DNA from: Saprospira grandis
Lineage (GTDB): Bacteria; Bacteroidota; Bacteroidia; Chitinophagales; Saprospiraceae
Assembly: GCF_027594745.1 (NCBI RefSeq)
Contig: NZ_CP110854.1
Span: forward strand, 1,180,241-1,244,240
Length of the DNA: 64,000 nucleotides
Direction: 5' to 3'
The translations under genes and the position numbers were made by a program. The number at the start of each line of letters is the position of its first letter. Positions within the stretch are counted from its first letter, which is position 1. The notes beneath the pieces were generated by a model. The model saw only the letters and a list, made by a program, of their open reading frames with translations. It searched no databases and had not been told where the DNA came from. Of the stretch, positions 15,372 through 62,548 are shown piece after piece.

Positions 15372-15474
15372 CAACCCTAATCTTTCAGAAAAACCGACTT
15401 CCCACAAAAAAGCAATAAAAAACAAACCGAAAAGCTTAGATATTGTTAGCTTAACAGCTACAATTTTAAATCTT

Positions 15475-26599: not shown

Positions 26600-26832
26600 T
26601 TTGGGGCCTCCGCAGCAAAGCTGCGGCGGTTACTCCTTTCAGTCGTCGAACTGCGCCCTAAAGGGCTTGTTGTCGTTTCGGGGCTCGCTGATTTTTTTGG
26701 GCCTCCGCAGCAAAGCTGCGGCGCTACGTTTCGGGGCTCGCTATTCGCTCGGCCCTGCGGCAGCAAAGCTGCCTGGGTCTGGCCTTCGGCCACCCCTACA
26801 CATCGCTAGGCCTGCGGCGCTCCGCGCCTGCA
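26597..26832 (+). repeat. GC-rich interspersed repeat, copy 9 (forward; hairpin module duplicated; carries optional module B)
   Basis: TTTGGGGCCTCCGCAGCAAAGCTGCGGCGGTTACTCCTTTCAGTCGTCGAACTGCGCCCTAAAGGGCTTGTTGTCGTTTCGGGGCTCGC...ACATCGCTAGGCCTGCGGCGC. The element starts at the batE stop codon. Confidence 0.85.
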
Positions 26833-29635: not shown

Positions 29636-29830
29636 GCTGTTAAAGCGCTTTGGGGCGGCTTGGCCGCCTTGGCCGAAGGCCAAATGGCCCAGCGCTGCGG
29701 CGGGGTGGCCGAAGGCCAGACCAAAGGCGAAACGAAGTGGAGCCTGAAGGGCCGAGCAGACCTGCGAGCCCCAAAGCATAGCGGCGGCCGCCCTACTATA
29801 AAGGGCGGCCGCGGGCCCCAAAATACCCTA
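29636..29830 (-). repeat. GC-rich interspersed repeat, copy 10 (reverse)
   Basis: GGCCCAGCGCTGCGGCGGGGTGGCCGAAGGCCAGACC...GGGCCGAGCAGACCTGCGAGCCCCAAAGCATAGCGGCGGCCGCC...GGGCCCCAAAATA. Confidence 0.8.
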
Positions 29831-33269: not shown

Positions 33270-33480
33270 TTGGGGCCTCAGCTGCGGTTACTCCCTTTGG
33301 TCGTCGAACTGCAGACTAAAGTCCTTGTTATCGTTGCGCAGCTCGCTGCTGTTTTGGGGCCTCCCGCCTTCGGCGGGCGCTACGTTTCGCAGCTCGCAGG
33401 TCTGCTCGGCCCTGCGGCCTGACGGCCTTGGTCTGCGGCTGCGCCGCACTGCTCCACATCGCTAGGCTAGTTCTGCGGCC
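33270..33480 (+). repeat. GC-rich interspersed repeat, copy 11 (forward, with module B)
   Basis: Starts 4 bp after the MVP stop: TTTTGGGGCCTCAGCTGCGGTTACTCCCTTTGGTCGTCGAACTGCAGACTAAAGTCCTTGTTATCGTT...ACATCGCTAGGC. Confidence 0.85.
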
Positions 33481-35868: not shown

Positions 35869-38800
35869 ATGATGATGCGTTATTTCCTATTCTTGCTCCT
35901 GCTTTGGAGTAGTGGGTCCCTTTTGGCCCAAACAGAAGATATTGAATTGGTGGTGAGCCAAGGCCACCACAGTAATGTCCGAGCCCTTGCCTTTTCGGAA
36001 GATGGGCGTTTTTTGGCCACGGCTGGCGATGACCGCAGCCTGCGCATTTGGTCGATGCGGCTACAGCAAGAATATAAGGTCCTTTGGGGACATAAGGCGG
36101 CTATTACGGATGTGGGCTTTTCTAAAGATGGGCAGTTTCTGGCCTCTGTGGGCAGTCGGCTGCTCTGTATATGGTCTATGCCTGAAGGCAAACTTTTGCA
36201 TCAGATGGAGGTAGATGCCCTGAGCAAACGCCTGCAATTTTCGGAGACTAAGGCAGGACATGTTATGGCCCGACTGCCCGAGGGCATGGCCTGGGTAGAT
36301 TTAAAAACAGGGGCCATAGACTACAGCCTAAAGCCCTTTATGCGAAATTGGAGCAACTGGATTTTGGGACAAAAAACAGCCCGTGTGATTATTCCAGAAC
36401 GGCCCGATAGCATTTGGGCCTATAGCCTCGAGGGCCAAAGAAAACAACTATTTGTAGGTAAAGGAAGCTATTATAAGCTGCTGCTTTCGCCCAATGAGGA
36501 TTATCTGGCAGCCTATTCGGGCAGCCGTCTGGCCGTAGATGTTTGGGACTATAAGAGCGGAAAATTGATTGGCAGTATTGAGGGGCTTGGCCCACTACAA
36601 GACTTTTGTTTTGATATGGCGGGGCAGCGGCTCTGGATTATGGACCTACATGCCGAATGCAGGGTCTATAGCTGCCCTAAACTCCAAATGGAGCTAATTG
36701 TCAATAAAAAGAGCTGGGGGCAAGAAGGCCTTGGCCAAGGCGATTTGGTACAGGTAAATATTGGTCAGCAGATTCGCCCCAGCCCCAATGGGCAGTTTAT
36801 GGGGCTGGCCATTACTCGCACCGAAGTGAACCGCAAGACGAGCAAGATGAATGACCTCAGAGGAGTCCAACTAGTCGATGCCCAAACGGGCAAAGAAAGG
36901 GGCCTATTTAAGGGGCATTTTAAGTGGATTACCCAGCTAGGTATCTCGCCCAAAGGCGATAAACTCCTCTCCATCAATATGGGCAAAACCCGAGGGCTGC
37001 GCTCTTGGACCATCCAAAAAGGAGAAATTGAACGCTATATCCATAGCTCCCAAAGCCTTAGCCAAAGCCAAGATAAAAAACAACTGGCCCTACTCGAGTT
37101 TCAGGAAAAAGCTCAGCCAGAACTAACGGTCTATCAGCTCCCTAGTTTTAGAAAGCTAGCCAAGAAGAAGCTCGACAATTGCAGCGCCTTTGCCCTAAGT
37201 GGCGATGGTAAAAAAATAGCGGCCCTACAAGTAGATGTTAATCTCAAAAACCCTTTAAACAACCGCTTTTATTACTCTATATGGAAGCTACCCAACTACA
37301 AACTAGAACAAGAAATTGAGATCGAATCTAAGGAATCTGCCCTACCCATATTTAAAAGTCTATTGCTTGATTCTGCTGGCGATTACCTTCTTGCTGCCGC
37401 CCAAAACCAAGCCTACAGCCTAGAGCTAAGCAGCCAAAAACGCATCCGATTTGCCCTGCCTAGCTCGGCTACTTATTGGCGAATGCTCTGCCTGCACCCA
37501 CAACAGCCCGCCCTACTCTTTGCGGTCACGGAGGTGGTCTATAATCAGGAGGAAAAAAGAGTGGAGGAGCTCAGCAAGCTGCTGCTCTACAACTATAAAA
37601 CAGGCGAACTCATCGAGGAAGTAAGCAGCCCCAAAGAGGGGGTTATCCAAAGCGCAACCTTTAGCCCAGATGGTCAATACCTACTCACGGGGCAAACGGC
37701 CTATCAGGCGGTCATCAACTTTGATGTGCTGCTCTGGGATTGGCCCCAAAAACAACTGCTCTGCCAATTTAAAGGGCATAATGGCGGCATCAATGACCTG
37801 GCCTTTGACCCCCTAGGCAAAAAGGCCTATAGCTGCTCAGAAGATGGATTGATTAAGGCCTGGGATATAGAAAAATGTGCCCTAGACGCTTCTTTTATTG
37901 GCTATAATGAATTGGATTACCTCATTATCTCGCCCGAAAATTACTATAAAACTAGCCGAAGCAATACCGCTGGCCTTGGCTTTCGATATGCCGGCGACCT
38001 CTATACCTACGATCAGTTTGACCTCCGATTTAACCGCCCAGATAAGGTCCTCGCCCCCTTTAGCGATGCCCCTCGCAAACTAAATATCTATACCAAGGCC
38101 TGGAAAAAAAGAGTGCGGCGACTCGGCTTTACCGAGGAACAACTAGAGCAAGAGCTAGACCTGCCCCAACTTCAAATTGTCAATCAATTGCAGCTCCCCA
38201 TTTTTGTAGAAGATAGCCTCATCCATTTCCAAATTACCGCCTTTGACCAGCAACAGGCCCTAAAAAAACTGCGCATCTTTGTCAATGGCGTGCCCTACCC
38301 CAATGCAGAAGGCATCGAGCTAAACAACAGCCCTGGCGATAGCCTGCGCCAAGAACTAAGTATTCCACTAGGCCAAGGCCCCAATAAAATTCAACTCTCG
38401 GTGGTCAATGCCGCAGGCCTAGAAAGTGCCAAACAGAGCTTTCAACTGGCCTACCAACCCAAAGAGAAACAAACTAGTCAACTCTACTTTTTGGGCCTTG
38501 GAGTCAGTGAGTTTAAAGATAGTAGCCGCAACCTAAAGTACCCCCAAAAAGATGCCCATGACCTGGCCCAAACCTTAGCCGAAGCCCAAGAAAAAGGACA
38601 GTTCCAGCAACTTTTGCTCGACCCTAATATGCCCATAGAACAACTGCAAAAAAGCGCTAGAGACTTTATGGAGCAGGCCAAAATCAATGACCAAATTGTC
38701 TTTTATATCTCTTCGCATGGCCTGCTAGACGATAGCCTGAACTACTACCTAGCCCTCCCCAATAGCCAATTTGATCAGCCCCAAAATGGAAGCTGGGCCT

Positions 38801-39303
38801 ATGATAATATAGAGCAATTACTGGATGGGCTACCCTGCCGCAACCGCCTGCTCCTGCTCGATGCCTGCCATTCTGGGGAAGTGGATAAGGAGGTAGAAAC
38901 CGAGAAGAAATCGGTCAGCAGCTTTGCCCAAAACATACTCAAAAGAAGCAAGTCGGGCAGTACCCTGATCCGCCCCAAAACGGGACTCAACAACTCTTTT
39001 GCCTATATGAAGGCCCTTTTTTCGGACCTAGAACAGCAGAGCGGGGTCACGGTTATTTCTGCCGCTGGCGGCTTCGAACTGGCCTATGAATCGGATGAAT
39101 GGGGCAACGGCCTCTTTACCTACGCCCTTTTGGAGGGCATCAAAAGCAAGAAAGCCGACCTCAATAATGATGGCCAAATTCCTATCCTCGAGCTGCGAGA
39201 CTTCCTCAGCCTCAGGGTGCTAGAGCTCAGTCAGGGCCAACAGCAGCCCACCGCCCGCCAATCCAATGTTTTCAATAACTTTATCCTTTACCGTTATGAT
39301 TAG
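35869..39303 (+). CDS. Secreted WD40-repeat protein with C-terminal caspase-like (peptidase C14) domain
   Basis: Signal peptide MMMRYFLFLLLLWSSGSLLAQ. WD40 units (e.g. GHHSNVRALAFSEDGRFLATAGDDRSLRIWS; GHKAAITDVGFSKDGQFLASVGSRLLCIWS; GHNGGINDLAFDPLGKKAYSCSEDGLIKAWD). The C-terminus carries the caspase His/Cys dyad context YISSHGLLDD ... LLLLDACHSGE. Confidence 0.8.
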   Translation: MMMRYFLFLLLLWSSGSLLAQTEDIELVVSQGHHSNVRALAFSEDGRFLATAGDDRSLRIWSMRLQQEYKVLWGHKAAITDVGFSKDGQFLASVGSRLLCIWSMPEGKLLHQMEVDALSKRLQFSETKAGHVMARLPEGMAWVDLKTGAIDYSLKPFMRNWSNWILGQKTARVIIPERPDSIWAYSLEGQRKQLFVGKGSYYKLLLSPNEDYLAAYSGSRLAVDVWDYKSGKLIGSIEGLGPLQDFCFDMAGQRLWIMDLHAECRVYSCPKLQMELIVNKKSWGQEGLGQGDLVQVNIGQQIRPSPNGQFMGLAITRTEVNRKTSKMNDLRGVQLVDAQTGKERGLFKGHFKWITQLGISPKGDKLLSINMGKTRGLRSWTIQKGEIERYIHSSQSLSQSQDKKQLALLEFQEKAQPELTVYQLPSFRKLAKKKLDNCSAFALSGDGKKIAALQVDVNLKNPLNNRFYYSIWKLPNYKLEQEIEIESKESALPIFKSLLLDSAGDYLLAAAQNQAYSLELSSQKRIRFALPSSATYWRMLCLHPQQPALLFAVTEVVYNQEEKRVEELSKLLLYNYKTGELIEEVSSPKEGVIQSATFSPDGQYLLTGQTAYQAVINFDVLLWDWPQKQLLCQFKGHNGGINDLAFDPLGKKAYSCSEDGLIKAWDIEKCALDASFIGYNELDYLIISPENYYKTSRSNTAGLGFRYAGDLYTYDQFDLRFNRPDKVLAPFSDAPRKLNIYTKAWKKRVRRLGFTEEQLEQELDLPQLQIVNQLQLPIFVEDSLIHFQITAFDQQQALKKLRIFVNGVPYPNAEGIELNNSPGDSLRQELSIPLGQGPNKIQLSVVNAAGLESAKQSFQLAYQPKEKQTSQLYFLGLGVSEFKDSSRNLKYPQKDAHDLAQTLAEAQEKGQFQQLLLDPNMPIEQLQKSARDFMEQAKINDQIVFYISSHGLLDDSLNYYLALPNSQFDQPQNGSWAYDNIEQLLDGLPCRNRLLLLDACHSGEVDKEVETEKKSVSSFAQNILKRSKSGSTLIRPKTGLNNSFAYMKALFSDLEQQSGVTVISAAGGFELAYESDEWGNGLFTYALLEGIKSKKADLNNDGQIPILELRDFLSLRVLELSQGQQQPTARQSNVFNNFILYRYD

Positions 39304-39304
39304 T

Positions 39305-39433
39305 TTCTTTTCTTTTGGGGCCTCCGCCTCCCTTCGGTCGTCGGCGCTACGTTCCGGGGCTCGCAAGTCTGCTCGGCCCTTCGGCGGCTTGGCCGCCTCG
39401 GTCTGCGGCTGCGCCGCCCCCCTCCACATCGCT
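39305..39433 (+). repeat. GC-rich interspersed repeat, copy 13 (forward)
   Basis: Starts 2 bp after the stop: TTTTGGGGCCTCCGCCTCCCTTCGGTCGTCGGCGCTACGTTCCGGGGCTCGCAAGTCTGCTCGGCCCTTCGGCGG...ACATCGCTAGGCC. Confidence 0.85.
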
Positions 39434-39481
39434 AGGCCAAAACCAAAAACTGCCCTAGGGGCAGCCAAAGAGGGCCTTTCG

Positions 39482-40946: not shown

Positions 40947-41358
40947 TTCCCCCTCGGAAGGGGTTACTCTAGCCCTCAAGAGGGGTTACTCTACCCCTCG
41001 AAAGGGGTTAATCTACCCCTCAAGAGGGGTTACTCTACCCCTCGAAAGGGGTTACCCTACCCCTCGAAAGGGGTTACCCTACCCCTCGAAAGGGGTTACT
41101 CTACCCCTCGAAAGGGGGTGCTCTACCCATCGAAAGGGGGTGCTCTACCCATCGAGAGGGGGTGCTTTACCCATCGAGAGGGGGTGCTCTACCCATCGGG
41201 AGGGGGTGCTCTACCCATCGGGAGGGGGTGCTCTACCCATCGGGAGGGGGTGCTTTACCCATCGAGAGGGGGTGCTTTACCCATCGAGAGGGGGTGCTTT
41301 ACCCATCGAGAGGGGGTGCTTTACCCATCGAGAGGGGGGTGCTTTACCCATCGGAAGG
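40947..41358. repeat. 22-bp tandem repeat array, about 19 copies, two sub-families, each unit a short hairpin
   Basis: About 7 units CTCTACCCCTCGAAAGGGGTTA (hairpin CCCCT-CGAA-AGGGG), then about 12 units CTCTACCCATCGAGAGGGGGTG with the variable positions drifting along the array. No spacers. Confidence 0.9.
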
Positions 41359-41706
41359 AAAATACTAGCAATAAAGAGGGGTAGATGGATTTAAATTAAA
41401 GGCAATATAAAAACAGTTATTGACTCCTTTATATCACTAAAGCTGAGCAACTTTTACAACCTTCTGACTGATAGCAATGCGCAGGCCCTCAGCTAGAAAT
41501 AGTCCTTAAAACAACTGCTAATAAGATCCAAAACTCTATAAAACACAAAAAAATAGCCTATTAAAGTATTTTTTATTAGTTATAACTTGCATCTTAAAAT
41601 TATTTACCCTATGTTTATAACATAGACAACATAAGAGCACATTATTTTTACTAAAGAGCTCTAGTTGTTAGACATCTAATTATTAATCAAATAAATACCT
41701 AGTACT

Positions 41707-42294: not shown

Positions 42295-42533
42295 GGGTTG
42301 AGGAGGCGGCAGCCATGGCCCGCAGGGCCAAACGGCCACAACAAAGCCTTTAGGCTGTCTTCGACGACTGAAAGGAGTAAGCGATGCGGCAGCCATGGCC
42401 CGCAGGGCCAAACGGCCTAGCGATGCGGCGGGGTGGCCGTCAGGCCAGACCAAGGCGGCGCAGCCGCCGCAGGGCCGAGCAGACCTGCGAGCCCCAAAGC
42501 GTAGCGCCGCAGCTTGCTGCGGAGGCCCCAAAT
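42295..42533 (-). repeat. GC-rich interspersed repeat, copy 14 (reverse; hairpin module duplicated; module B present)
   Basis: GGCGGCAGCCATGGCCCGCAGGGCCAAACGGCC occurs twice, separated by AAAGCCTTTAGGCTGTCTTCGACGACTGAAAGGAGTAA (reverse complement of module B). Ends GCAGCTTGCTGCGGAGGCCCCAAATAAAAAGG. Confidence 0.8.
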
Positions 42534-43611: not shown

Positions 43612-43650
43612 AAAAGCCGCAAGTCATACAACTTGCGGCTTTGGTTTTTT
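43612..43650. terminator. Bidirectional intrinsic terminator between the tRNA-Leu region and the convergent minus-strand gene
   Basis: AAAGCCGCAAGT-cataca-ACTTGCGGCTTT hairpin flanked by A5 upstream and GGTTTTTTG downstream. Confidence 0.7.
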
Positions 43651-43664: not shown

Positions 43665-44564
43665 CTAGTTTCTTAAGTTTTTATCTTCTACAAAAATCTT
43701 CTGATCATCTAGGTAGCGGTAGTAGGTAGTCTTGTAGATATACTCTAACTTCTTCTTTTCTTTATTGGGCAGATTTCCCGTTTCTGTTAGTTCTATATAA
43801 AACTGATCATTTAGGATGAAATACTTGACCCTTGTCTTGTAGTGATAGACATAATCTGGTTTAACTTGATAATCTTCTGTAGGAGCTCTTTGGTCTATCT
43901 CACTGAGCCAGCTTAAAGCAGAGCGAGTATAATTGTTAATGCTAAAAAGTTTGATATCTGCTGTGCTAATATTAGATGGATCAGATTCCTCTGTATCTTC
44001 TCGCTGAAGAAAAATGCGTCCTCCCTCAAAAGCAACTGCCTTTGGGCTTGAGTTCGTTTCATAATAAGAGCTCCAAGAGTAGCCCATACTAAAGGCCTCT
44101 GATTTTAAACAGTTTTTTACATTTTTAGTCATCTGTTCTAAACTCCATCTTTGCTTATCCCAGTGAAGACGCATAATACTGAGATTTTCCTGAGCGAGAA
44201 CGGATCCCCTTTCTGTACCAAAACATACCTCTATCACTGCAGGTTTATGACGAAAGAAAACCAAGGCGTATAGTTCTTCTTCTTTTTTATAGTAAAATGT
44301 GGTATCCCAATAAACAAGCATTCGCCGCTCATTTTCGCATACATATGGCTCTGGGGCTAAGTAATAAGCAGTATCTTCATTTATGTTGTCAATAGCAAAG
44401 GCCAGTTTCATCCACTTTTCTTTTTCTAGCTCTAATTGGTCCGCCTCTATAGGGGTATAGGGAGGCAAAGGCTCTACATATCGCCTTTGGGCAGTTAACT
44501 GACTAACTAACAAGCTGCAACTTGCTAGTAGAAAACATAATTTGAGTTTAGCTAAAAATTTCAT
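43665..44564 (-). CDS. Hypothetical secreted/lipoprotein
   Basis: Preferred start MKFLAKLKLCFLLASCSLLVSQLTAQ (signal peptide with Cys). The longer ORF start at 44612 is not preferred. No recognised domain. Confidence 0.55.
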   Translation of the reverse strand: MKFLAKLKLCFLLASCSLLVSQLTAQRRYVEPLPPYTPIEADQLELEKEKWMKLAFAIDNINEDTAYYLAPEPYVCENERRMLVYWDTTFYYKKEEELYALVFFRHKPAVIEVCFGTERGSVLAQENLSIMRLHWDKQRWSLEQMTKNVKNCLKSEAFSMGYSWSSYYETNSSPKAVAFEGGRIFLQREDTEESDPSNISTADIKLFSINNYTRSALSWLSEIDQRAPTEDYQVKPDYVYHYKTRVKYFILNDQFYIELTETGNLPNKEKKKLEYIYKTTYYRYLDDQKIFVEDKNLRN

Positions 44565-44610
44565 AAAGGTATTGTTTAAGTAATTAGATGTTATTTGAGG
44601 ACTGTTCAAC

Positions 44611-44712
44611 ATTTTGTGTTTCCCCTCTTTGCTGAGGCGACTATTGGCTAGCTCCTAGTAAGCTAAAAAGCAAAATTTTATTCTGATATATAAAGTCCTA
44701 AACAGCCCCAGC
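44611..44712. repeat. About 100-bp dispersed repeat; uninterrupted paralogue of the sequence flanking the MITE-like element at 40611-40631 / 40798-40880
   Basis: TTTTGTGTTTCCCCTCTTTGCTGAGGCGACTATTGGCTAGCTCCTAGTAAGCTAAAAAGCAAAATTTTATTCTGATATATAAAGTCCTAAACAGCCCC aligns at about 80% with TTTTGTGTTTCTCCTTTTGCTG...CGATTATTGGCTGAATCCTAACAAGCTAAAGGCCCAAATTTTATTCGGATACACAAAATCCTGAATAGTCCC. Confidence 0.6.
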
Positions 44713-44713: not shown

Positions 44714-45226
44714 CTACTCCCAATTCCACCAAAGCGCCCCATCTACTCCCCCAGCCTCTCCAATTTCTAGCTCCCAAATACTGCCCAAAGGCGTATGGCA
44801 ACCATAGGGACAAGTATAGGGGTAGTCGAGCTGCTCTTTCTTGGGGTCCAAATACTCCAAAATCATATTGATGGGCCCACAATGGCTAAAGATGGCCGTG
44901 GGCCGAGCCCATAACTGCTCCTCCTCTCCCCGATACCAATCCTGCACTCTTTGTTCTAGTGACTCATGCGGCTCTATTTCTTTCTCTCTTTCTCTTAATG
45001 CCTGCACTATCTTCGGCTGCAAAGCTGGAGCAAGCTGAGCATAGGGCGCATAGGTCTGCCCTACCCGCAAATAATCGCTACAATATACGGCCTGAATATC
45101 TTTCTTTGCCAAATACTGGGCAATGGCTAAGGCTTGCTCTTTTCCCTTTTCGCCCAAGGCTGGACCCGGAAAACCCCGATATTCTTTGGGGGCAGGCTGG
45201 GCATGACGCACTAAATAAAGCTTCAT
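44714..45226 (-). CDS. Histidine phosphatase family protein (phosphoglycerate mutase/SixA-like)
   Basis: MKLYLVRHAQP N-terminal RH(A/G) motif and overall length typical of SixA-like phosphatases. Confidence 0.65.
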   Translation of the reverse strand: MKLYLVRHAQPAPKEYRGFPGPALGEKGKEQALAIAQYLAKKDIQAVYCSDYLRVGQTYAPYAQLAPALQPKIVQALREREKEIEPHESLEQRVQDWYRGEEEQLWARPTAIFSHCGPINMILEYLDPKKEQLDYPYTCPYGCHTPLGSIWELEIGEAGGVDGALWWNWE

Positions 45227-45918
45227 ATTTTATGTTGACAGTCTCCTTTTTCGTTAATAATTTCATGTTCCCCCCCTTGGTTCTGCACCAATGCAAAGCC
45301 ATTGTAAAAGGGCTCTAGCTGCAAAAATCGACGATTATATATGGGCCGCCCCGCCAAATCGATATGCAACCAACCCGCCTCATCTTTGGCCCGAGCAAAT
45401 CCTTTGTGAAAAACATCTAGCTCTAGATAGCGATAAGGATGCAAGGCCTTGCCCTGAGAATCAATATGCAAACAATAGCCATCGGCCTGACGAACACAGG
45501 CATAGCCATCTCTAAAGTCTCCCGCATAGCGATAACGCTCCTCATAAAGCGGATGTCCCTGCCAGTCAATATGGAAGTAATCCCCGCCTTTTCGGACCGT
45601 GCAAATGTCTTGCTGATAGTTGCCACACCAGTCATAACGCTCTCCATAAATGGCATTTCCTTTTGTGTCTATATGGAATTGCCCCTGCTCCGAAGATACC
45701 GCCGCCCGATTACAATAATAACCAAAGGTCCGCAAATATCGCTGCCGATAAAGGGCCATGCCCTCGCTGTTGATATGATAGCTGCCCGTTTCGTCTTCTA
45801 CAGGCGCCAAACCCGGCGCATGAAACTTTAATACCGACTTATAAGGGCCAAAAATAGCTTGCCCTTCCAAGCAAAATCCATTGCCTGCAGCATTGACTTT
45901 TATGTTTTTCCAATTCAT
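45223..45918 (-). CDS. WG-repeat-containing protein
   Basis: Repeated (G/A)(F/Y)xxxxxxxWxxIDxxGxxxY units (e.g. GFARAKDEAGWLHIDLAGRPIYNRRF; GYACVRQADGYCLHIDSQGKALHPYRY). Start overlaps the stop of the downstream gene. Confidence 0.55.
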   Translation of the reverse strand: MNWKNIKVNAAGNGFCLEGQAIFGPYKSVLKFHAPGLAPVEDETGSYHINSEGMALYRQRYLRTFGYYCNRAAVSSEQGQFHIDTKGNAIYGERYDWCGNYQQDICTVRKGGDYFHIDWQGHPLYEERYRYAGDFRDGYACVRQADGYCLHIDSQGKALHPYRYLELDVFHKGFARAKDEAGWLHIDLAGRPIYNRRFLQLEPFYNGFALVQNQGGEHEIINEKGDCQHKI

Positions 45919-46886
45919 CTTTTCTCAAATATCAATAGGGTCTGTAAATCATTGATCGAACGCTTTTCTAGATAAGCAAAGCCTGTTTGCTCTGCCAATT
46001 TCCGATAGGCCGCTAAGGTCCGTTCTTGGCTCTTGCAAATGGCCAACATATTCAAACTAAGCAGCTCGGCCCCATCGGCTAGCTGCTCTTTTAGGATTTC
46101 TAAGATGTATAAGCGCCCTCCTTTTGGCAAGGACGCATAAACGTTTTCCAATATTTTTAAGGCAGCTTCATCGGGCCAATCATGTAGCACTCTGGCCAGA
46201 AAAATATGCTCGGCGACTTGGGGAATGGGCGCAAAAAAATCAGCAGAAATAGGCCGAAAAGGCAGCTCTCCCTCTGGCAATAAAGCCAATACTTTGGGCT
46301 TGTCTAATAAATAATATTTAGGCAGAGGATGAACCCTCGCCAAGGCCTTGAGCAAAGCCCCCAAGCCGCCCCCCAAATCCATCACGGCTTTGGCTTCCGA
46401 CAAATCCAACTGCTCGCCCAACTGCGCATAATCATCCCGCGCATATTCGTTCATCGCCAAATGATAAATCCGATTGCTCTCGGGCTGCTCATCCAAATAA
46501 TCAAAAAAAGGCTGTCCATATAGCTGCTCAAAAACGGCCTCATCGCTGCGAATACTCTGCGCCAAATGCTGCCAAGCCCGCAAATGCTCCTCGCCCCAAA
46601 GCAAACAAGCATACTTCAAAGATTGGAGATGTTCCTCCGCCAGTTGCGCCCCTTTTTCGGCCAAAATATACTGCCCATTTTCGGTCTTCAAGGCCTCCAA
46701 TTGCTCCAAGGCCGCCAATAATAACTGCAAACTTGCCCGCTTGGCACCTAGCTTTTCCGCCAACTCAGCCAAACTAAGCGGCCCCTCCCAAAGCGCATCA
46801 AATACCCCCAGCTGACAGGCGGTCCGCAAGGGCAAATAATGCCAATAACTGGTAAAACTATTCTTCAACTCCTGACTAATACTCAT
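45915..46886 (-). CDS. Class I SAM-dependent O-methyltransferase (family 2, HIOMT/COMT-like)
   Basis: N-terminal dimerisation/winged-helix region. SAM motif VMDLGGGLGALLKAL. VLHDWPDE motif characteristic of O-MT family 2. Confidence 0.8.
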   Translation of the reverse strand: MSISQELKNSFTSYWHYLPLRTACQLGVFDALWEGPLSLAELAEKLGAKRASLQLLLAALEQLEALKTENGQYILAEKGAQLAEEHLQSLKYACLLWGEEHLRAWQHLAQSIRSDEAVFEQLYGQPFFDYLDEQPESNRIYHLAMNEYARDDYAQLGEQLDLSEAKAVMDLGGGLGALLKALARVHPLPKYYLLDKPKVLALLPEGELPFRPISADFFAPIPQVAEHIFLARVLHDWPDEAALKILENVYASLPKGGRLYILEILKEQLADGAELLSLNMLAICKSQERTLAAYRKLAEQTGFAYLEKRSINDLQTLLIFEKR

Positions 46887-46908
46887 TTTTTTCTGTTCTA
46901 TATGATTT

Positions 46909-47150
46909 GATTTTTGGGCCTCCGCCTCGCTACGCTCGTCGGCGGTTACTCCCTTCGGTCGTCGAACTGCGAACTAAAGTTCTTGTTGTCGTTCCACAGC
47001 TCGCTGCTATTTTTGGGGCCTCCGCCTCGCTTCGCTCGTCGGCGCTACGTTCCGCAGCTCGCTGTTCGCTCGGCCCTGCGGCCTGACGGCCTTGGTCTGC
47101 GGCTGCGCCGCACTGCTGCACATCGCTAGGCCAAAAAAGGCCTGCGGCTG
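46909..47150 (+). repeat. GC-rich interspersed repeat, copy 15 (forward; hairpin module duplicated; module B present) inside an operon intergenic region
   Basis: TTTTTGGGCCTCCGCCTCGCTACGCTCGTCGGCGGTTACTCCCTTCGGTCGTCGAACTGCGAACTAAAGTTCTTGTTGTCGTT...TTTTTGGGGCCTCCGCCTCGCTTCGCTCGTCGGCG...ACATCGCTAGGCC. Confidence 0.85.
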
Positions 47151-47170
47151 AGCTAGAGAGCTAAAACAGC

Positions 47171-48196
47171 CTACTTCCGCATCGTACAGCCTTGGCAAAG
47201 GGGCTTTTTCTTATAGTTTTCCACCAATTCTACGTAGGCTTTGCTTTGTAGGACCTCCACAAGGCTGCGGTTCTGAATATTACCAAAATCGCCTAAGGCT
47301 TGCCGCTGCTCATCGGGGGCGCAGCAGGGCGATATTTTCCCTGTGGCCGAAACCCAAAGTTCCTTATTTAGGAAAGGGCAGTCGTAGTCTTCTGGGACCG
47401 CCTCTGCTGCGCCTGCAGTTAGGGGGACAATATTTTCTAGTAAAACGGGTTTCCCATTGGGCAGTAAGTATTGGTCTCTAGCCGCATAGGCCTCTTCTAC
47501 ATATTGGTTCCATTGGGCCATGCTCTCCGCATCCTTACGGAAAGACAAGTCCTTGATTTCATCAAAATGATCCCATAACTGATGCCCTTTTACTCGATCT
47601 ACGCCAAGACTAGCCGCTAGCTTGATGATATCGGCTAGTTCATGCATATTGTTTTGCATAAAGGTGAGTTGGAAACTTACTCGGCAATAATAGCCCGTTT
47701 CTGCAAAATGCTGGTCTCGTACAGCCACAAAGCGACGGACATGATCTACACACTGCTCGAAGTTAATTCCAGGCATGACTTCCTCAGCCGTTTTGGCGCT
47801 GGCCGCATTCCAAGAGATTTTAATGTCTGTGGTTTGCGGTACAATCAGTTTGGCCCAAACCTCTACGGGCTTTTTAGGAAAGGTCCCATTGGTGGTGAGA
47901 TTGATTTTAATCCCATACTGCTCACTCAAATCAAAGATTTGCTCAAAGCCTTTATACAACAAAGGCTCCCCCATGGTAGAGGGGATAATCTCTTTGACGC
48001 CCAAGGCTTGGGCCTGCTCAAAAATCTGGACCACCCACTCAAAAGGCATACGGCGACGCTTGACGCCCGTGTTTTTATAGAGGTCTGCGATAAATGTACT
48101 ATAAGGACTATGCTCCTCGCACATAATACAATGCAAGTTGCAATCTTCAGGGTTGGTGTCTATGGTAATTCGCCAAAAGTCTTTAGGCTTGGACAT
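47171..48196 (-). CDS. Radical SAM enzyme with Cys-rich C-terminal (SPASM/twitch-like) auxiliary cluster domain
   Basis: CNLHCIMC = CX3CX2C at residues 19-26. C-terminal CPFLNKELWVSATGKISPCC...CQGC cysteine cluster. Overlaps the upstream GT4 gene by 14 bp. Confidence 0.75.
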   Translation of the reverse strand: MSKPKDFWRITIDTNPEDCNLHCIMCEEHSPYSTFIADLYKNTGVKRRRMPFEWVVQIFEQAQALGVKEIIPSTMGEPLLYKGFEQIFDLSEQYGIKINLTTNGTFPKKPVEVWAKLIVPQTTDIKISWNAASAKTAEEVMPGINFEQCVDHVRRFVAVRDQHFAETGYYCRVSFQLTFMQNNMHELADIIKLAASLGVDRVKGHQLWDHFDEIKDLSFRKDAESMAQWNQYVEEAYAARDQYLLPNGKPVLLENIVPLTAGAAEAVPEDYDCPFLNKELWVSATGKISPCCAPDEQRQALGDFGNIQNRSLVEVLQSKAYVELVENYKKKPLCQGCTMRK

Positions 48197-49472
48197 GCAA
48201 AATAGCTTTATACTGTTCTAAAATGGTTGCTGTATGTGTTTTTATATCAGGGACCTCTCCGGCTGCATCATAGAGATAGCCTCTTTGGCCCAATTGCTTC
48301 ATTTCTTCGGGATGTTGGATGGCCCAGGCCATTTGTTCTTGTAATGATTGACCATCTCGGTGCTTGAAGAGCAGGCCATTGACCCCATGCGCTACATATT
48401 CTGCCATGCCGCCATAATCTGCCGTGATGACAGGCAAACGAGCCGCCTGCGCCTCATGAATCACCAAAGGAGAGTTTTCGCCCCAGATAGAAGGGACCAC
48501 AATGGCATCTACCTGAGCAAAAACCTCTTGGACCAAATCTTCATTGGCATAGCCCCCACAAAATGAAATCCGCTGACTTTGCGCTGCGCTCATGGCACTT
48601 AAAGCCTTTTGGCTTTGGCTGTCTTTCCAGCCCCAAATCTTTAGCTCTACCGCTTGGGCTAAACCCTTAAATGCTTCTATTAATAGGTTGACCCCCTTGG
48701 CGGGAATATGCGTACCGATATACCCAAAGCGAAAAGGTCCAGCTTTTCGAGCTGTTTTGGGCGGACTTAAATAATGCGTCGGAAAGCCATAATCTAAATA
48801 ACTTACTTTTTCGGCAGGCAAATTAAAGTCCTTGATAAAGCGATTCATCAGATAGCGCGAGGGCGCAATAAAATGATCGACTAGCCCAATAATTTCTCTT
48901 GTTTTCTGCATACGTCGGCCTATCCATCGGCTCCAATAGGCTAGGTCTTCGGCTTCTTCTTCTGGATGGCCAGAAAAGAGCATTTTGTAGCAAGAGGCCG
49001 CACATTTTTGGTCCTCTTGGCCCGTACAGAGCTGATAGCAGTTTTGTCCATCAAAGTTGCGCTGTAAAAACTGGCCTCGGGGACACATCAGCCAGAAGTC
49101 GTGCAAGGTAAAGAGAATAGGCACCCCCGCCTTTTTCAGCGCTTGGACCAAGCCCAAAGACAGATGATTAAGATGGCCAATATGAGCTACATCTGGACGG
49201 TCTTGGGCCAAAATAGCCGCCAGCTTTTGGTCGACCTGCGGCTGCCAATAACCGTCTTTGTCTCTGGGCATATTGACCAAATGAAACTGTAAGCCCTGCT
49301 CATCTTTAAAAGAACGCAGCTCAAAATCTGGCCGATAAGGTTCCTCCTCTCGGCTGAAAATTGTGAGCCGATGCCCCTGCCGATGCAGTTCTTGGCAGAG
49401 GCTCTGGCTATAGACTTCGGAGCCTGCACTGTAGCCCGGCGGATAGCCATGAATAATTTTTAGAATGTGCAT
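48183..49472 (-). CDS. Glycosyltransferase family 4 (GT-B)
   Basis: C-terminal SIWGENSPLVIHEAQAARLPVITADYGGMAEYVAHGVNGLLF corresponds to the GT4 E-x7-E donor-binding region. Confidence 0.85.
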   Translation of the reverse strand: MHILKIIHGYPPGYSAGSEVYSQSLCQELHRQGHRLTIFSREEEPYRPDFELRSFKDEQGLQFHLVNMPRDKDGYWQPQVDQKLAAILAQDRPDVAHIGHLNHLSLGLVQALKKAGVPILFTLHDFWLMCPRGQFLQRNFDGQNCYQLCTGQEDQKCAASCYKMLFSGHPEEEAEDLAYWSRWIGRRMQKTREIIGLVDHFIAPSRYLMNRFIKDFNLPAEKVSYLDYGFPTHYLSPPKTARKAGPFRFGYIGTHIPAKGVNLLIEAFKGLAQAVELKIWGWKDSQSQKALSAMSAAQSQRISFCGGYANEDLVQEVFAQVDAIVVPSIWGENSPLVIHEAQAARLPVITADYGGMAEYVAHGVNGLLFKHRDGQSLQEQMAWAIQHPEEMKQLGQRGYLYDAAGEVPDIKTHTATILEQYKAILHVQA

Positions 49473-49703
49473 TTTTTCAATTTATGGTTTAGGGAAGGCT
49501 GTTGGGAACTAGCTCAAAAGGAGAGTTTTGTCTTTGTGCTCCTTTTGTGCTCCACTTATTTCAAATCATCAAAAGGATGTGCCAAAAAGCAAAAATAAAC
49601 TAACCAACTAATAACCAACAACTTACAAAAACAAGCTAATTTAAAGCTGCTGTAAAATTTTGGAATCTATGTATTTTTTTACAGTTTTAGGAGAACTTTA
49701 AGG

Positions 49704-49870
49704 CAATACTTAGGCGGCGAAGCCGCCTTGGCCGAAGGCCAAATGGCCTAGCGCTGCGGCGGGGTGGCCCAAAGGGCCAGACCTAGGCGGCAAAGCCGCC
49801 GCAGGGCAGAGCAGACCTGCGAGCCCCAAAGCATAGCGCCCGCAGCTTGCTGCGGGAGGCCCCACCCCCC
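49704..49870 (-). repeat. GC-rich interspersed repeat, copy 16 (reverse) in a divergent promoter region
   Basis: GGCCTAGCGCTGCGGCGGGGTGGCCCAAAGGGCCAGACC...GCAGCTTGCTGCGGGAGGCCCCACCCCCC. Confidence 0.8.
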
Positions 49871-49890
49871 CTCATCTAACCCCCAAAACT

Positions 49891-51717
49891 ATGGCAAAAG
49901 AAAACATTTACATCAGTTGGCATTATACTACCCATGGCACTGCATTTTTGCAGCATCAGTTGGCGGCTTTTTGGCGGGGGGAGTTGCAATTATCGGAAAA
50001 GCCCTTGTATAAAGAGGGGCTTTGTCAGTTGGAATTGAGCGAGGCCTTTTCGGCAAATCGGCAGCCTGGATTTTTATTTGACAAGGTCTATTATTTATGT
50101 GCCGAGCAGGCTGTTTTGGACCGTTTATCTCTGCGGCGATTGAGCTATCGAAAGAACATGTATGAGGTAGACAAAGCGGTGGAGGAGACGCAAATGCAGG
50201 AGGTTTGGAGAGAGGTGATTGCGCAGAACCTTTCCTCTTGGGTGGATGAGATGACTTATGTAAAGGAACATTATCCCGATCGTTTGGAAGACTTTGAGGG
50301 GCAAATTTGGCGGGACATGCAGCATTATCCCATTGACAGTCAGCTAGCATGGTTTAGGCGAAAGTCGCCTGCTGCGCCTTATTATCATGCTCGTTTTGAG
50401 GCCGTTCATTTTAGCCAAGAAGAGCTGCCAAACTTACGAGATGAGCAGAGCATTTTGACCGTTTTGCAAGGCTTTTTCAAAACTCTTTTGGCCCGACATG
50501 GGGCCGAGGCCAACTACATCATCAATGTCAGTTTGGGCAGTAATGAAACGCAGGTCGCTTGGTTTGTTCTGGCCGAGGCGGGGCTCTTGCCCCCCAACTG
50601 TCGATTCATCAAGGTCTATGACGTTAAGACCAAAGGCGCAGATCCTCGTTTTAAGAACTTCCAAATTCAGGAGATTCCCAGCCGTCTAATTTCTAGTTTA
50701 TCGGCCAACTTATATGAGCATGACAACCTACAATCGCCCCTGCGGCGGTTGGCCGACCTCAAGATGAAGACCTATATAGAGCAAGGTTTTGCCATATTGA
50801 TTTTGGGCGAAAGAGGGACGGGAAAATCCAGAATGATTTCGAGATTGGAGCGAGAAAACCGCAAGGTCTTAGCCATCAATTGTGCCTCCTTTGATGATGA
50901 CAACAAGGCCGAATCGGAGTTTTTTGGGCATAGCAAGGGGGCCTATACGGGGGCAGATCAAGCCAAAAAGGGCTTATTTGAAGAAGCTCGGGGCGGAATT
51001 CTCTTCTTTGATGAGGTGCATCATTTGAGTAAGCGGGTACAGGGCAAACTCATGAAAGCCCTACAAACCGATGAGAACAACAACTATCGTTTTCGGCCCA
51101 TGGGGAGCAGCCAAGAACAGCAAAGTCAGTTTACTGCTGTTTTTGCTAGCAACAAAAGTATTGAAGAGCTGCGGGAGCTTTTATTGGCCGACTTCTTTGA
51201 TCGTATCTCTCAGCTCCTGATTGAGCTGCCCCCACTGCGGGAAAGTCGAGATGAAATTGAAAAAGACTGGGAAACCGTTTGGACACAACTGCGCTTTGCG
51301 CCTAGCTACCCCTGTCCCAAATCTCCAGAGCTCTTCCAATGGCTCAAAAAGCAGCCTTTGTGGGGCAACTTTAGAGATTTGCAAAAGATAGCTATCTATT
51401 ATAAGGCCTTTTTAGATTTACCCCAAGAGGCCCAACAACTAGAGGGAGTAGACAGCCCCCTAGCCTTTGCCCAAAAGGAGTTTAAGGCCTATCATGGGCA
51501 TTTTCCTAAGCAAACTAAGTTGCCCCAAGCCTTTCAAGAGCTCTTTGATCTGGAGCTCATTGCCTCAGAGACGGAAGAAAAGACCTATAAAATTCTGGAG
51601 AAGCGCTATAAAAAGGCCCTTATTAGTTGGGTAGAGGAAAACTTTCCCGCTCAACCAGTTTGGGAGATTTTAGACATGAGCGAAAGTAACTACTACAAGA
51701 TGAAGAAAGAGAGCTAA
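49891..51717 (+). CDS. Enhancer-binding-protein-like AAA+ regulator (sigma-54 interaction-type domain with GAYTGA variant motif) with a roughly 300-aa N-terminal domain of unknown function and a short Fis-type HTH tail
   Basis: ILILGERGTGKSRM Walker A. ESEFFGHSKGAYTGA corresponds to the ESELFGHEKGAFTGA/GAFTGA loop. FFDEVHHLSKRVQGKLMKALQ Walker B/sensor region. C-terminal WEILDMSESNYYKMKKES resembles the end of a Fis-type HTH. Confidence 0.65.
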   Translation: MAKENIYISWHYTTHGTAFLQHQLAAFWRGELQLSEKPLYKEGLCQLELSEAFSANRQPGFLFDKVYYLCAEQAVLDRLSLRRLSYRKNMYEVDKAVEETQMQEVWREVIAQNLSSWVDEMTYVKEHYPDRLEDFEGQIWRDMQHYPIDSQLAWFRRKSPAAPYYHARFEAVHFSQEELPNLRDEQSILTVLQGFFKTLLARHGAEANYIINVSLGSNETQVAWFVLAEAGLLPPNCRFIKVYDVKTKGADPRFKNFQIQEIPSRLISSLSANLYEHDNLQSPLRRLADLKMKTYIEQGFAILILGERGTGKSRMISRLERENRKVLAINCASFDDDNKAESEFFGHSKGAYTGADQAKKGLFEEARGGILFFDEVHHLSKRVQGKLMKALQTDENNNYRFRPMGSSQEQQSQFTAVFASNKSIEELRELLLADFFDRISQLLIELPPLRESRDEIEKDWETVWTQLRFAPSYPCPKSPELFQWLKKQPLWGNFRDLQKIAIYYKAFLDLPQEAQQLEGVDSPLAFAQKEFKAYHGHFPKQTKLPQAFQELFDLELIASETEEKTYKILEKRYKKALISWVEENFPAQPVWEILDMSESNYYKMKKES

Positions 51718-54285: not shown

Positions 54286-54495
54286 TTGGGGCCTCCCGCC
54301 TTCGGCGGGCGGTTACTCCCTTCAGTCGTCGAACTGCGGCCTAAAGGCCTTGTTGTCGTTCCGCAGCTCGCTGCTGTTTTGGGGCCTCCCGCCTTCGGCG
54401 GGCGCTACGTTCCGCAGCTCGCTATTCGCTCGGCCCTGCGGCCTCACGGCCTTGGTCTGCGGCTGCGCCGCACTGCTACACATCGCTAGGCCGCT
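54286..54495 (+). repeat. GC-rich interspersed repeat, copy 17 (forward; hairpin module duplicated; module B present)
   Basis: TTTTTTTGGGGCCTCCCGCCTTCGGCGGGCGGTTACTCCCTTCAGTCGTCGAACTGCGGCCTAAAGGCCTTGTTGTCGTT...TTTTGGGGCCTCCCGCCTTCGGCGGGCGCTACGTTCCGCAGCTCGC...ACATCGCTAGGCC. Confidence 0.85.
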
Positions 54496-54576
54496 CATCT
54501 GCCTTTTTCTAGCTTAAGTTTCTTCTTTGGCGGCTGGCTTGTTTTGGGCCGATGGGCTGAAGCCCATTTGGAAGAC

Positions 54577-55080
54577 GCTATTCTGCAACTGCAAAACGAC
54601 ATCTTACAGTTGCGCTAAGCTATTCTGCAGATGCAAAACGGCATATTACAGTTGCGGCAAGCTATTCTGCAACTGCAAAACGGCATATTACAGTTGCGGC
54701 AAGCTATTCTGCAACTGCAAAACGGCATATTACAGTTGCGGCAAGCTATTCTGCAACTGCAAAACGGCATATTACAGTTGCGGCAAGCTATTCTGCAGAT
54801 GCAAAATGGCATATTCCATTTGGAGGACGCTATTCTGCAACTGCAAAACGGCACATTCCATTTGGAGGACGCTATTCTGCAACTGCAAAACGACACATTC
54901 CATTTGGAGGATGCTATTCTGAAACTGCAAAACGGCATATTCCATTTGGAGGACGCTATTCTGCAACTGCAAAACGACACATTCCATTTGGAGGATGCTA
55001 TTCTGCAACTGCAAAACGGCATATTCCATTTGGAGGACGCTATTCTGAAACTGCAAAACGGCATATTCCATTTGGAGGAT
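54577..55080. repeat. 42-bp tandem repeat array, exactly 12 units in two sub-families, each unit with an internal 7-bp-stem hairpin
   Basis: Units GCTATTCTGCAACTGCAAAACGGCATATTACAGTTGCGGCAA (stem GCAACTG/CAGTTGC) followed by units GCTATTCTGCAACTGCAAAACGGCACATTCCATTTGGAGGAC. Open in 5 of 6 frames, which is trivially frame-preserving because 42 = 14 codons. Confidence 0.9.
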
Positions 55081-55139
55081 GCTATTAGGAATTTGCGAAA
55101 ACGTAGCATCAAGACTTTGATGGGCTGTTCCAAAAATTC

Positions 55140-55272
55140 GTCCTACAGGCCCGAAGGGCCGCAGGCCTAGCGATGCGAAAGGGGGCTGCGCAGCCGCAGA
55201 CCAAGGCCGTCAGGCCGCAGGGCCGAGCAGACCTGCGAGCCCTGAAGCGTAGCGCCTGCAGCTTTGCTGCAG
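55140..55272 (-). repeat. GC-rich interspersed repeat, copy 18 (reverse)
   Basis: GGCCTAGCGATGCGAAAGGGGGCTGCGCAGCCGCAGACCAAGGCCGTCAGGCCGCAGGGCCGAGCAGACCTGCGAGCCCTGAAGCGTAGCGCCTGCAGCTTTGCTGCAGGAGGCCCCAAAACAAC. Confidence 0.85.
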
Positions 55273-55320
55273 GAGGCCCCAAAACAACAACAGCAAGAGC
55301 ATAAAAAACAGCAGACTAAA

Positions 55321-62282: not shown

Positions 62283-62528
62283 GAGGGCAAAAACTTCTGC
62301 GGTCCTTTGGCCTAGCGATGTGCAGCAGTGGCCGTCAGGCCAGACCAAGGCGCTGCAAGCGCCGCAGGGCCGAGCGAACAGCGAGCTGCGAAACGTAGCG
62401 CCCGCCGAAGGCGGGAGGCCCCAAAACAACAGCGAGCTGCGAAACGACAACAAGCCCTTTAGGGCGCAGTTCGACGACCAAAGGGAGTAACCGCAGCAAG
62501 GCGAAGCCGCAGCTGAGGCCCCAAAAAA
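62283..62528 (-). repeat. GC-rich interspersed repeat, copy 20 (reverse; with module B)
   Basis: GGCCTAGCGATGTGCAGCAGTGGCCGTCAGGCCAGACC...GGGCCGAGCGAACAGCGAGCTGCGAAACGTAGCGCCCGCCGAAGGCGGGAGGCCCCAAAA...AACGACAACAAGCCCTTTAGGGCGCAGTTCGACGACCAAAGGGAGTAACCGCAGC...GAGGCCCCAAAAAATAAA. Confidence 0.85.
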
Positions 62529-62548
62529 TAAAACAAATCCCCTTAAAT

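Follow-up and report, generated by a model that had tools for sequence, protein, structure and literature searches.

What does a bacterium make with a glycosyltransferase, a radical S-adenosylmethionine (rSAM) enzyme and an O-methyltransferase (OMT) that are encoded side by side next to a divergent activator gene, and which signal calls for the product? This question is raised by a locus of Saprospira grandis that lies in a 64,000-nt stretch of DNA, here called the window (GCF_027594745.1, NZ_CP110854.1 positions 1,180,241-1,244,240, forward strand; coordinates below count from its first nucleotide). Five genes run on the minus strand: a GT4-family glycosyltransferase of 429 aa (GT4; 48183-49472, Pfam Glycos_transf_1/Glyco_transf_4), an rSAM enzyme of 341 aa with a short SPASM/twitch-like C-terminal domain (47171-48196, Pfam Radical_SAM and SPASM), an OMT of 323 aa with an N-terminal dimerisation/winged helix-turn-helix (HTH) domain (45915-46886, Pfam Methyltransf_2, E = 8e-36, and Dimerisation), a WG-repeat beta-propeller-like protein of 231 aa (45223-45918, Pfam WG_beta_rep) and a short histidine phosphatase of 170 aa with RHA at residues 7-9 (44714-45226, Pfam His_Phos_1, E = 2.6e-17). 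Divergently, on the plus strand, an RtcR-like AAA+ enhancer-binding protein of 608 aa is encoded (49891-51717, Pfam Sigma54_activat, E = 7e-33). The open reading frames (ORFs) of GT4 and rSAM overlap by 14 bp, those of OMT and WG by 4 bp and those of WG and the histidine phosphatase by 4 bp, which is consistent with translational coupling. A first-pass annotation of this DNA had placed all six ORFs, their motifs and the 14-bp overlap at these coordinates, and each gene family that it named was confirmed by Pfam. The evidence given below shows a real, widely conserved and uncharacterised enzyme operon, in which an RtcR-like regulator is joined in a new combination to a GT4-rSAM/WG-OMT module of the type found in the Undecim Cluster of Wolbachia phage WO.

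The rSAM family was found by a genome scan in at least 520 species-level genomes, mostly of Bacteroidota (Saprospiraceae, Chitinophagaceae, Flavobacteriaceae, Cytophagales and Bacteroidales), with carriers outside this phylum including Candidatus Uabimicrobium (Planctomycetota) and one metagenome-assembled genome of Leptospiraceae. The genomes closest to the window in this enzyme belong to Saprospiraceae and Aureispira (74-81% identity). We compared 80 loci (individual ones are given as L numbers), of which the 55 with enough flanking DNA were treated as complete. GT4, rSAM and the WG-repeat protein were each present in 55/55 complete loci, a phosphatase of any type in 50/55, a regulator of the window's AAA+ family in 32/55 (12 with a CARF domain), OMT in 20/55 and a NodU-like carbamoyltransferase in 9/55, the latter two being tailoring enzymes that stand in for each other across loci. 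Directly upstream of GT4 and in the same orientation, a true prokaryotic viperin (NF038283, 287 bits against a cutoff of 180) was encoded in 7 of the 80 loci, from several phyla. The core consists of GT4, the rSAM/SPASM enzyme and the WG-repeat protein, and OMT, carbamoyltransferase and viperin are optional. Conservation of the gene order, which the first-pass annotation had put forward as a check, was strong across the carrier genomes. No description of the operon was found in the literature on RtcR/CARF, rSAM, glycosyltransferase, viperin and anti-phage topics.

GT4 and rSAM form a single ORF of ~765 aa in 49 of the 80 loci, and the same fusion is found in the protein database, so that the overlapping genes in the window represent, in split form, an enzyme that is usually a single bifunctional chain. 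The GT4 part bears a four-cysteine motif, C130-x18-C149-x7-C157-x3-C161, that was invariant in 73/73 sequences. Among proteins of solved structure, MshA and sucrose-phosphate synthase come nearest to it in sequence, and both glycosylate a phosphorylated acceptor that is then dephosphorylated by a dedicated phosphatase. The rSAM part has its CX3CX2C motif at C19/C23/C26; at its C-terminus C273, C291, C292, C334 and C337 were invariant in 23 homologues (a C-terminal Cys cluster had been read from the window sequence), and C171 was near-invariant. The SPASM domain was recognised by Pfam with 41 bits, five invariant C-terminal Cys being present against the seven of the full SPASM motif.

No curated NCBIfam equivalog was reached by the rSAM enzyme: the best model, TIGR04317, gave 75 bits against 380, and the MoaA and PqqE models gave 43 bits (cutoff 325) and 31 bits (cutoff 381). 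A housekeeping cofactor maturase (MoaA, PqqE, tungsten-cofactor maturase or heme/NirJ) was thus rejected since none of these equivalog scores was attained, and the window enzyme was rejected as a viperin at 24.5 bits against the cutoff of 180. The first-pass annotation had proposed an uncharacterised biosynthetic enzyme set, a proposal that assignment of the rSAM protein to a housekeeping family and an unconserved gene order would have contradicted; the enzyme fell into no such family and the order is conserved. In its AlphaFold2 (AF2) model (predicted local distance difference test score, pLDDT, 84.5) the rSAM enzyme matched SkfB, PqqE, SuiB, DesII, BlsE, BtrN and viperin with template modelling (TM) scores of 0.5-0.6 at 11-15% identity. 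Because enzymes acting on sugars or nucleotides and enzymes acting on peptides matched equally, the structure does not decide on the substrate; by sequence, the only match in the PDB was SuiB (E = 3e-4). With the small-molecule twitch/SPASM enzymes BtrN, DesII, BlsE, MoaA and viperin, the window enzyme shares a CX3CX2C motif near the N-terminus, a length of ~340 aa with a short Cys-containing C-terminal domain, and the company of glycosyltransferase, phosphatase and tailoring enzymes, but this likeness is generic, no NCBIfam cutoff being reached.

The AF2 model of the WG-repeat protein (pLDDT 95.4) was all-beta and gave only generic propeller matches such as BamB, and a sequence search of the PDB with this protein returned no match. 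WG and OMT are fused in Wolbachia WD0614 and in the free-living locus L087, which suggests that the propeller is the substrate-binding partner of the OMT step. The phosphatase was of three unrelated types across the loci, His_Phos_1 (itself in two types), Y_phosphatase3 (PTP-like) and a fusion of Pol-beta nucleotidyltransferase with Y_phosphatase3. Such replacement by non-homologous phosphatases argues that a dephosphorylation step is needed.

The link to phage WO came from the rSAM profile, which found four loci in a viral collection. One of them, L083, was 100% identical to Wolbachia phage WO of wMel (MN180251.1), and its gene order agreed with that of the published Undecim Cluster, WD0611-WD0621 (PMC9203015): NTP-transferase, nucleoside diphosphate (NDP)-sugar epimerase, GT4::rSAM (778 aa), WG::methyltransferase-like protein (564 aa), PhyH dioxygenase, ABC exporter, two threonine-aldolase-like enzymes, MFS transporter and UDP-glucose dehydrogenase; next comes an ORF of 248 aa on the other strand. 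The literature presents UC3/WD0613 as a fusion of glycosyltransferase and radical SAM and calls UC4/WD0614 a methyltransferase, within a cluster that is highly expressed and whose copies were laterally transferred to Rickettsia (REIS/pREIS2), Cardinium and Phycorickettsia (Bordenstein & Bordenstein 2022, PMC9203015). The window proteins are homologous to these two: GT4 to the N-terminal half of WD0613 (49% identity, E = 2e-148), rSAM to its C-terminal half (48% identity, E = 2e-120) and WG to the N-terminal half of WD0614 (52% identity, E = 6e-73). OMT gave no significant match to WD0614 by BLASTP alone, and in a profile comparison the OMT family aligned with the C-terminal half of WD0614 over 287 columns (hhalign probability 94.8%, E = 5.5e-8). 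The window-type and Undecim-type layouts are bridged by L087, in which a WG::OMT fusion with clear Methyltransf_2 matches stands together with an NDP-sugar epimerase inside the operon.

The two systems thus hold the same four domains in adjacent genes (GT4 with rSAM/SPASM, WG with a Methyltransf_2-like domain) and the same invariant GT4 four-Cys motif. In the window, however, the genes are split (GT4|rSAM and OMT|WG), the order of OMT and WG is reversed, and the other nine Undecim genes (UC1, UC2 and UC5-UC11, that is NTP-transferase, epimerase, PhyH, ABC and MFS exporters, two aldolases, UDP-glucose dehydrogenase and UC11) are absent, whereas the window has in addition the phosphatase and the divergent regulator with its sigma-54-type promoter. 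With nine of eleven genes absent, the operon is not an Undecim Cluster; what is shared is the four-domain core. The Undecim Cluster is prophage-associated, whereas the window operon is chromosomal in a free-living member of Bacteroidota, and no phage genes were seen among the annotated window ORFs.

The regulator is built of a CARF domain (residues ~1-290), a sigma-54-interaction AAA+ domain (~291-500) and a C-terminal HTH-like helix pair. The AAA+ domain (PF00158, E = 7.3e-33, 114 bits against a cutoff of 20.2) contains Walker A GERGTGK, Walker B FFDE and the L1 loop GAYTGA at residues 350-355, and it matched structures of NtrC1, PspF and NifA (E = 1e-22 to 1e-26); judged by these features it is a typical module of sigma-54 activators (bacterial enhancer-binding proteins, bEBPs), as the first-pass annotation had read it. 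For the N-terminal domain that annotation had recognised no family, which proved wrong. The PADLOC model RtcR_PspF1--CARF_AAA_HTH matched residues 197-596 with E = 2.8e-82, further PADLOC matches were RtcR_PspF2 (E = 1.3e-43, from residue 114) and RtcR (E = 1.3e-33), the best NCBIfam match was RtcR (NF038308) at residues 177-500, reaching into the N-domain, and one N-domain homologue weakly matched Pfam PF06956 RtcR. On these profile matches we assign the N-terminal ~290 aa to the RtcR type of CARF sensor domains, and this assignment turns the biological interpretation towards a signal derived from a nucleotide or from RNA.

Two other features had been singled out in the regulator. The GAYTGA loop is indeed present, and is not special: in an alignment of 16 orthologues most have GAFTGA and Y occurs only in the window regulator, a single substitution, while HrpS always carries GAYTGA (PMC3105312) and the same variant is found in Clostridiales enhancer-binding proteins that still activate sigma-54 promoters (PMC6615313). 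The loop was therefore dismissed as a distinguishing feature and regarded as an ordinary functional variant. The HTH, described earlier as truncated, is not shortened compared with the orthologues, among which the HTH-like motif is conserved; Pfam HTH_8 gave no match at the regulator C-terminus. When the CARF domain alone was used as the query, seven proteins were retrieved, and in 5/5 readable contexts their genes divergently adjoined a GT4-rSAM operon, so that this regulator subfamily appears dedicated to the operon, in agreement with the dedicated control that had been supposed.

RtcR itself, the rtcBA activator of E. coli and Salmonella, has the same order of CARF, sigma-54-interaction AAA+ and HTH domains, a gene adjacent to its target operon and a sigma-54-type -24 element upstream of the target, as in the window (for RtcR and the RtcR-like regulators that head CoCoNuTs, see PMC7790460, PMC9650030 and PMC11090510). 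The window regulator differs in its N-domain, which is ~100 aa longer, in the GAYTGA loop, in its NF038308 score (140.6 bits, under the 650-bit equivalog cutoff) and in its target, a biosynthetic GT4/rSAM operon and not rtcBA or a restriction system. Short regulators of 300-360 aa, with neither a CARF domain nor a GAFTGA loop, were seen in many loci (L006-L074); these still match the AAA+HTH part of RtcR_PspF1 (E = 4e-16).

How the regulator may act on the operon was read from the intergenic region. A search for -24/-12 elements had been proposed in the first-pass annotation; the strict consensus TGGCAC-N5-TTGC, allowing up to one mismatch, had no match in 49473-49890, but by reading the sequence and comparing related loci a sigma-54-type promoter, TGGCAC-ATCCT-TTTG, was recognised on the minus strand at 49584->49570, 98 nt upstream of the GT4 start codon, with a perfect -24 and a degenerate -12 element (TTTG for TTGC). 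Related loci have TTGGCA(C/T)-N5-(T-rich, G) at the equivalent place, just 5' of the first operon gene, and L049 has a perfect TGGCACGCAGATTGCA. The -24 motif TGG[CT]A[CT] was found in 17/18 loci whose regulator has a GAFTGA-like loop and in 4/25 loci whose regulator has lost it, compared with a mean of ~6 hits in each group for shuffled sequences. This co-variation is the main evidence that loop-bearing regulators, including that of the window, probably act through sigma-54. Beside the CARF-less, loop-less regulators, palindromes such as TTGGCAAATATTTGCCAA take the place of the -24 motif; since these loci have neither loop nor -24 motif and do have palindromic operators, they seem to have switched away from sigma-54 control. 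Two further elements may belong to the control region of the window. A perfect 8-nt inverted repeat, CTGTAAAA-N19-TTTTACAG (49650-49684), 66-100 nt upstream of the -24 element, is a candidate upstream activating site, which in AT-rich DNA may have arisen by chance, and differing inverted repeats lie at the equivalent place in related loci. In the leader, a 13-nt inverted repeat (49511-49551, minus strand, 92% complementary) that overlaps a tandem TTTGTGCTCC x2 is a possible 5'-untranslated-region hairpin.

The first operon gene after the promoter varies among loci, being either one of several small conserved proteins or a small hydrophilic peptide. Conserved proteins of ~100 aa (families c7, c10 and c22) are encoded between regulator and GT4 in L008, L009, L013, L016, L017, L019, L027, L034 and others; c22 is weakly DUF4258-like, and c7 and c10 fit neither a Pfam nor an NCBIfam family. 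These first genes bring to mind the small RelE/BrnT-like genes that follow RtcR-type promoters (PMC11090510), and a small gene after the promoter is likewise a feature of the RtcR-associated CoCoNuTs. In ~20 of the 80 loci (for instance L002 8509-8649, L005 8467-8622, L044 8541-8675 and L080 8176-8289, also L026, L042, L027 and L061) the gene directly upstream of GT4 encodes a basic hydrophilic peptide of 30-50 aa. These peptides are of three unrelated types: type A with KNPNKG..GTNK.YDK.QGNRGKQLNPNQ, type B with PNWPSK.PGKPSG.GR.NNPPKPKK, and type C, an SMP/LEA-like stress protein (Pfam SMP, 31 bits). In L002 and L003 a hairpin lies 3' of the peptide gene.

As the best, though tentative, explanation we propose that the operon is induced through the CARF sensor and sigma-54 and makes a tailored glycoside or nucleoside-like metabolite. 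Binding of a ligand by the CARF domain (by analogy with RtcR, perhaps an RNA fragment that ends in a 2',3'-cyclic phosphate, or some other signal derived from nucleotides) would release the ATPase; this would contact sigma-54 via the GAYTGA loop and open the TGGCAC-N5-TTTG promoter upstream of GT4, giving a transcript that would encode the four-domain enzyme module and the phosphatase. GT4 might then move a sugar from an NDP-sugar onto a phosphorylated acceptor, the coupled rSAM domain might transform the sugar or nucleoside moiety by radical chemistry, the phosphatase would take off the phosphate, and OMT, with the WG propeller as binding partner, would cap a hydroxyl, a step presumably taken over by the carbamoyltransferase in other loci. 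The product would be made on demand, under stress or infection. The use of an rSAM enzyme followed by a phosphatase is known from nucleoside antibiotics (PolH/PolJ).

A soluble small molecule is favoured as the substrate over a peptide, lipid or polymer, because the rSAM motif at the extreme N-terminus leaves no room for a peptide-recognition domain, because the auxiliary-cluster domain is short in an enzyme of only 341 aa, because a glycosyltransferase is coupled to rSAM, in most species as one polypeptide, and has MshA and sucrose-phosphate synthase as its nearest solved relatives, because a phosphatase is needed, because O-methylation and carbamoylation are alternative tailoring steps, and because NDP-sugar enzymes and exporters accompany the module in Wolbachia. 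Several observations weigh against the proposed scheme. The analogy with RtcR as to the ligand is weak, since the NCBIfam RtcR score is far under its cutoff and no rtcA or rtcB lies nearby, none being found among the annotated neighbouring window ORFs or the gene clusters that recur in the 80 loci. The -12 element is poor, no rpoN gene is seen in the 64-kb window, no exporter or NDP-sugar genes lie beside the operon there, and the 284-bp spacer with a repeat between rSAM and OMT might mean that the operon is transcribed in two pieces. The peptide-modifying SkfB, PqqE and SuiB fit the rSAM structure about as well as the sugar- and nucleotide-acting enzymes do, and the functions given for the Undecim Cluster in the literature are themselves only predictions (PMC9203015).

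The sensor type also invites a reading in which the CARF regulator switches the operon on when infection damages RNA, and the module serves as an inducible chemical antiviral defence, either by making an antiviral nucleotide or nucleoside analogue or by glycosylating a phage or host macromolecule. This partly overlaps with the metabolite scheme, and we regard it as rather doubtful. It would account for the viperin genes upstream of GT4, which are confined to a minority of loci, and for the likeness to defence superoperons, which RtcR-like CARF regulators head, often with a small RelE/BrnT-like gene next (PMC11090510), a position taken here by the ~100-aa first genes, one group of them weakly DUF4258-like. 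That the first gene changes from locus to locus also points this way. GT4 passes the Pfam GT4-conflict cutoff (31 against 26 bits), and the cluster occurs patchily across phyla and also on phage WO, and is mobile. Against this, no core protein matched a PADLOC-DB 2.0 model: GT4, WG and the histidine phosphatase had no match at all, rSAM had only a weak pVip match (33 bits) and OMT a weak mad2 similarity, the regulator alone matching through its CARF family. The window operon is moreover flanked by the housekeeping genes YebC, M20 peptidase, transaldolase and GNAT, and the exporters beside the Wolbachia version suit a secreted product better than an intracellular one. Contexts that hint at defence islands or mobile elements do occur: type I restriction genes lie upstream of the regulator in four loci (L015, L016, L027 and L074; HsdR, E = 1.7e-202), an S1-P1 nuclease, an SNF2 helicase with a PLD-like gene and a CHAT protease are among the contexts, with L086 as the example (1615-2709 and 12576-16714), and serine recombinases follow the WG gene in ~4 loci; as support for defence, the restriction, SNF2/PLD and CHAT neighbours are anecdotal. 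A bolder and unlikely extension is that the module is the effector of an infection- or RNA-damage-inducible 'chemical immunity' not recognised before, in which a CARF sensor would turn on sigma-54 transcription of enzymes for an antiviral or antimicrobial modified nucleoside or glycoside, sometimes together with viperin, and that phage WO captured the module with exporters to act on Wolbachia's host or competitors.

The other readings are each less likely. Decoration of an envelope glycan (lipopolysaccharide (LPS), capsule or exopolysaccharide (EPS)) with a modified, O-methylated sugar agrees with the best, though weak, NCBIfam matches of GT4 (EPS, teichuronic-acid and PEP-CTERM glycosyltransferases), with the NDP-sugar epimerases inside some operons, with the annotation of the Undecim Cluster as EPS/LPS biosynthesis and methylation (PMC9203015) and with suggestions of this kind made for WD0611-WD0613 in the Wolbachia literature. 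Yet flippase, polymerase, chain-length and lipid-carrier genes and further glycosyltransferases were not recurrent in the 80 loci, the N-termini of the five operon products have no signal peptide or membrane anchor visible by eye, and a required phosphatase, a fused rSAM enzyme and CARF control are not features of envelope glycan loci, which makes the envelope unlikely as the target; likewise nothing was found in favour of the glycolipid that the first-pass annotation had named among the possible products, as the proteins look cytoplasmic and lipid or polysaccharide genes do not recur. A peptide made by the ribosome and modified after its translation (RiPP), crosslinked by rSAM/SPASM and glycosylated by GT4, would explain the SPASM domain, the top structural matches SkfB, PqqE and SuiB, and the basic peptides encoded before GT4 with their hairpins in L002 and L003. 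The peptides are, however, of three unrelated kinds, one of them SMP/LEA-like, they are missing from most loci and from the Wolbachia cluster, and the window has no such ORF, as had been noted before; with the three unrelated kinds and none in the window, a RiPP was rejected as a general explanation. No RiPP recognition element (RRE)/PqqD domain, protease or peptide exporter accompanies the operon, CX3CX2C from residue 19 leaves no space for an N-terminal peptide-binding domain, only five Cys are invariant in the C-terminal domain and all RiPP maturase models fell far under their cutoffs for the window rSAM enzyme, so that the glycosylated peptide once considered for this locus is improbable. 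Slightly more improbable still is an operon for RNA repair or hardening, analogous to rtcBA or Pnkp/Hen1 and acting on the ends or bases of damaged or vulnerable tRNA or rRNA. The RtcR-like regulator and the recurrent phosphatases and Pol-beta nucleotidyltransferase fusion would fit, and both the GT4 family and the rSAM enzymes include modifiers of tRNA nucleosides; but the operon has no ligase, kinase, cyclase or RNA-binding domain, OMT belongs to the small-molecule type Methyltransf_2, and the exporters and NDP-sugar enzymes in the Wolbachia context speak against an RNA substrate.

Outside the operon genes, the GC-rich repeat reported earlier in the rSAM-OMT spacer is present there (46905-47140) in a spacer of 284 bp that measures 33-55 nt in the relatives L002, L004 and L005, but it turned out to be a generic dispersed element. 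Its family has at least 15 intergenic copies across the window, including 9232-9379, 19204-19320, 23914-24040, 26600-26812, 29654-29791, 33284-33467, 39313-39442, 42389-42532, 54308-54492, 55164-55284 and 62306-62533, with >63% GC against ~48% for the rest of the genome and at least two sub-modules; they are repetitive extragenic palindromic (REP)-like or miniature inverted-repeat transposable element (MITE)-like elements. The RNA fold z-score of the spacer copy was only -2.05. Since the family is dispersed and another copy (49700-49875), between the regulator start codon and the AT-rich control region, abuts that start codon, the repeat is not a feature of the operon and was ruled out as an operon-specific element.

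The neighbours of the operon in the window are GNAT, M20 peptidase, transaldolase, YebC and a hypothetical lipoprotein. After a 101-nt gap 3' of the phosphatase gene, a 315-aa protein without any family match is encoded (43665-44612, minus strand), whose hydrophobic N-terminus looks lipoprotein-like by eye and which is not conserved in related loci. The sole strong terminator, a bidirectional one at 43613-43642, comes only after this gene, which may therefore be co-transcribed with the operon. Elsewhere in the window lie an 843-aa bacterial protein that resembles the major vault protein and has its 'shoulder' domain (30735-33266, plus strand; Pfam MVP_shoulder, E = 1.9e-31), an 1144-aa protein with WD40 repeats and a C-terminal caspase (Peptidase_C14) domain (35869-39303, plus strand), an architecture typical of conflict and programmed-cell-death systems in multicellular bacteria, and two tandem arrays, one of 12 copies with a 42-nt period (54438-55151), in which several frames are open and give repetitive Cys-rich pseudo-ORFs, and one of 11 copies with a 22-nt period (41000-41382).

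Compared with the first-pass annotation, the sigma-54 promoter, the GT4-rSAM fusion, the replacement of the phosphatase, the link to viperin and the Undecim homology have been added. A new family of bifunctional GT4::radical-SAM enzymes, with an invariant four-Cys motif, is defined, and a biosynthetic operon joins RNA repair and restriction systems among the known targets of RtcR-like CARF regulators. The phage WO island known as the Undecim Cluster is highly expressed and widely conserved, and its function is hard to study in an obligate intracellular symbiont, Wolbachia. Close counterparts of WD0613 and WD0614 have now been found in hundreds of free-living Bacteroidota, with Flavobacterium lacus, Capnocytophaga cynodegmi, Algibacter pectinivorans, Bizionia echini and Lutibacter citreus among the carriers represented by named strains. 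The locus of F. lacus CGMCC 1.12504 (L059) combines a CARF regulator with viperin, and that of A. pectinivorans DSM 25730 is L037. Because the operon is compact and has a dedicated ligand-sensing regulator in these free-living hosts, both its chemistry and the signal that induces it become directly testable.

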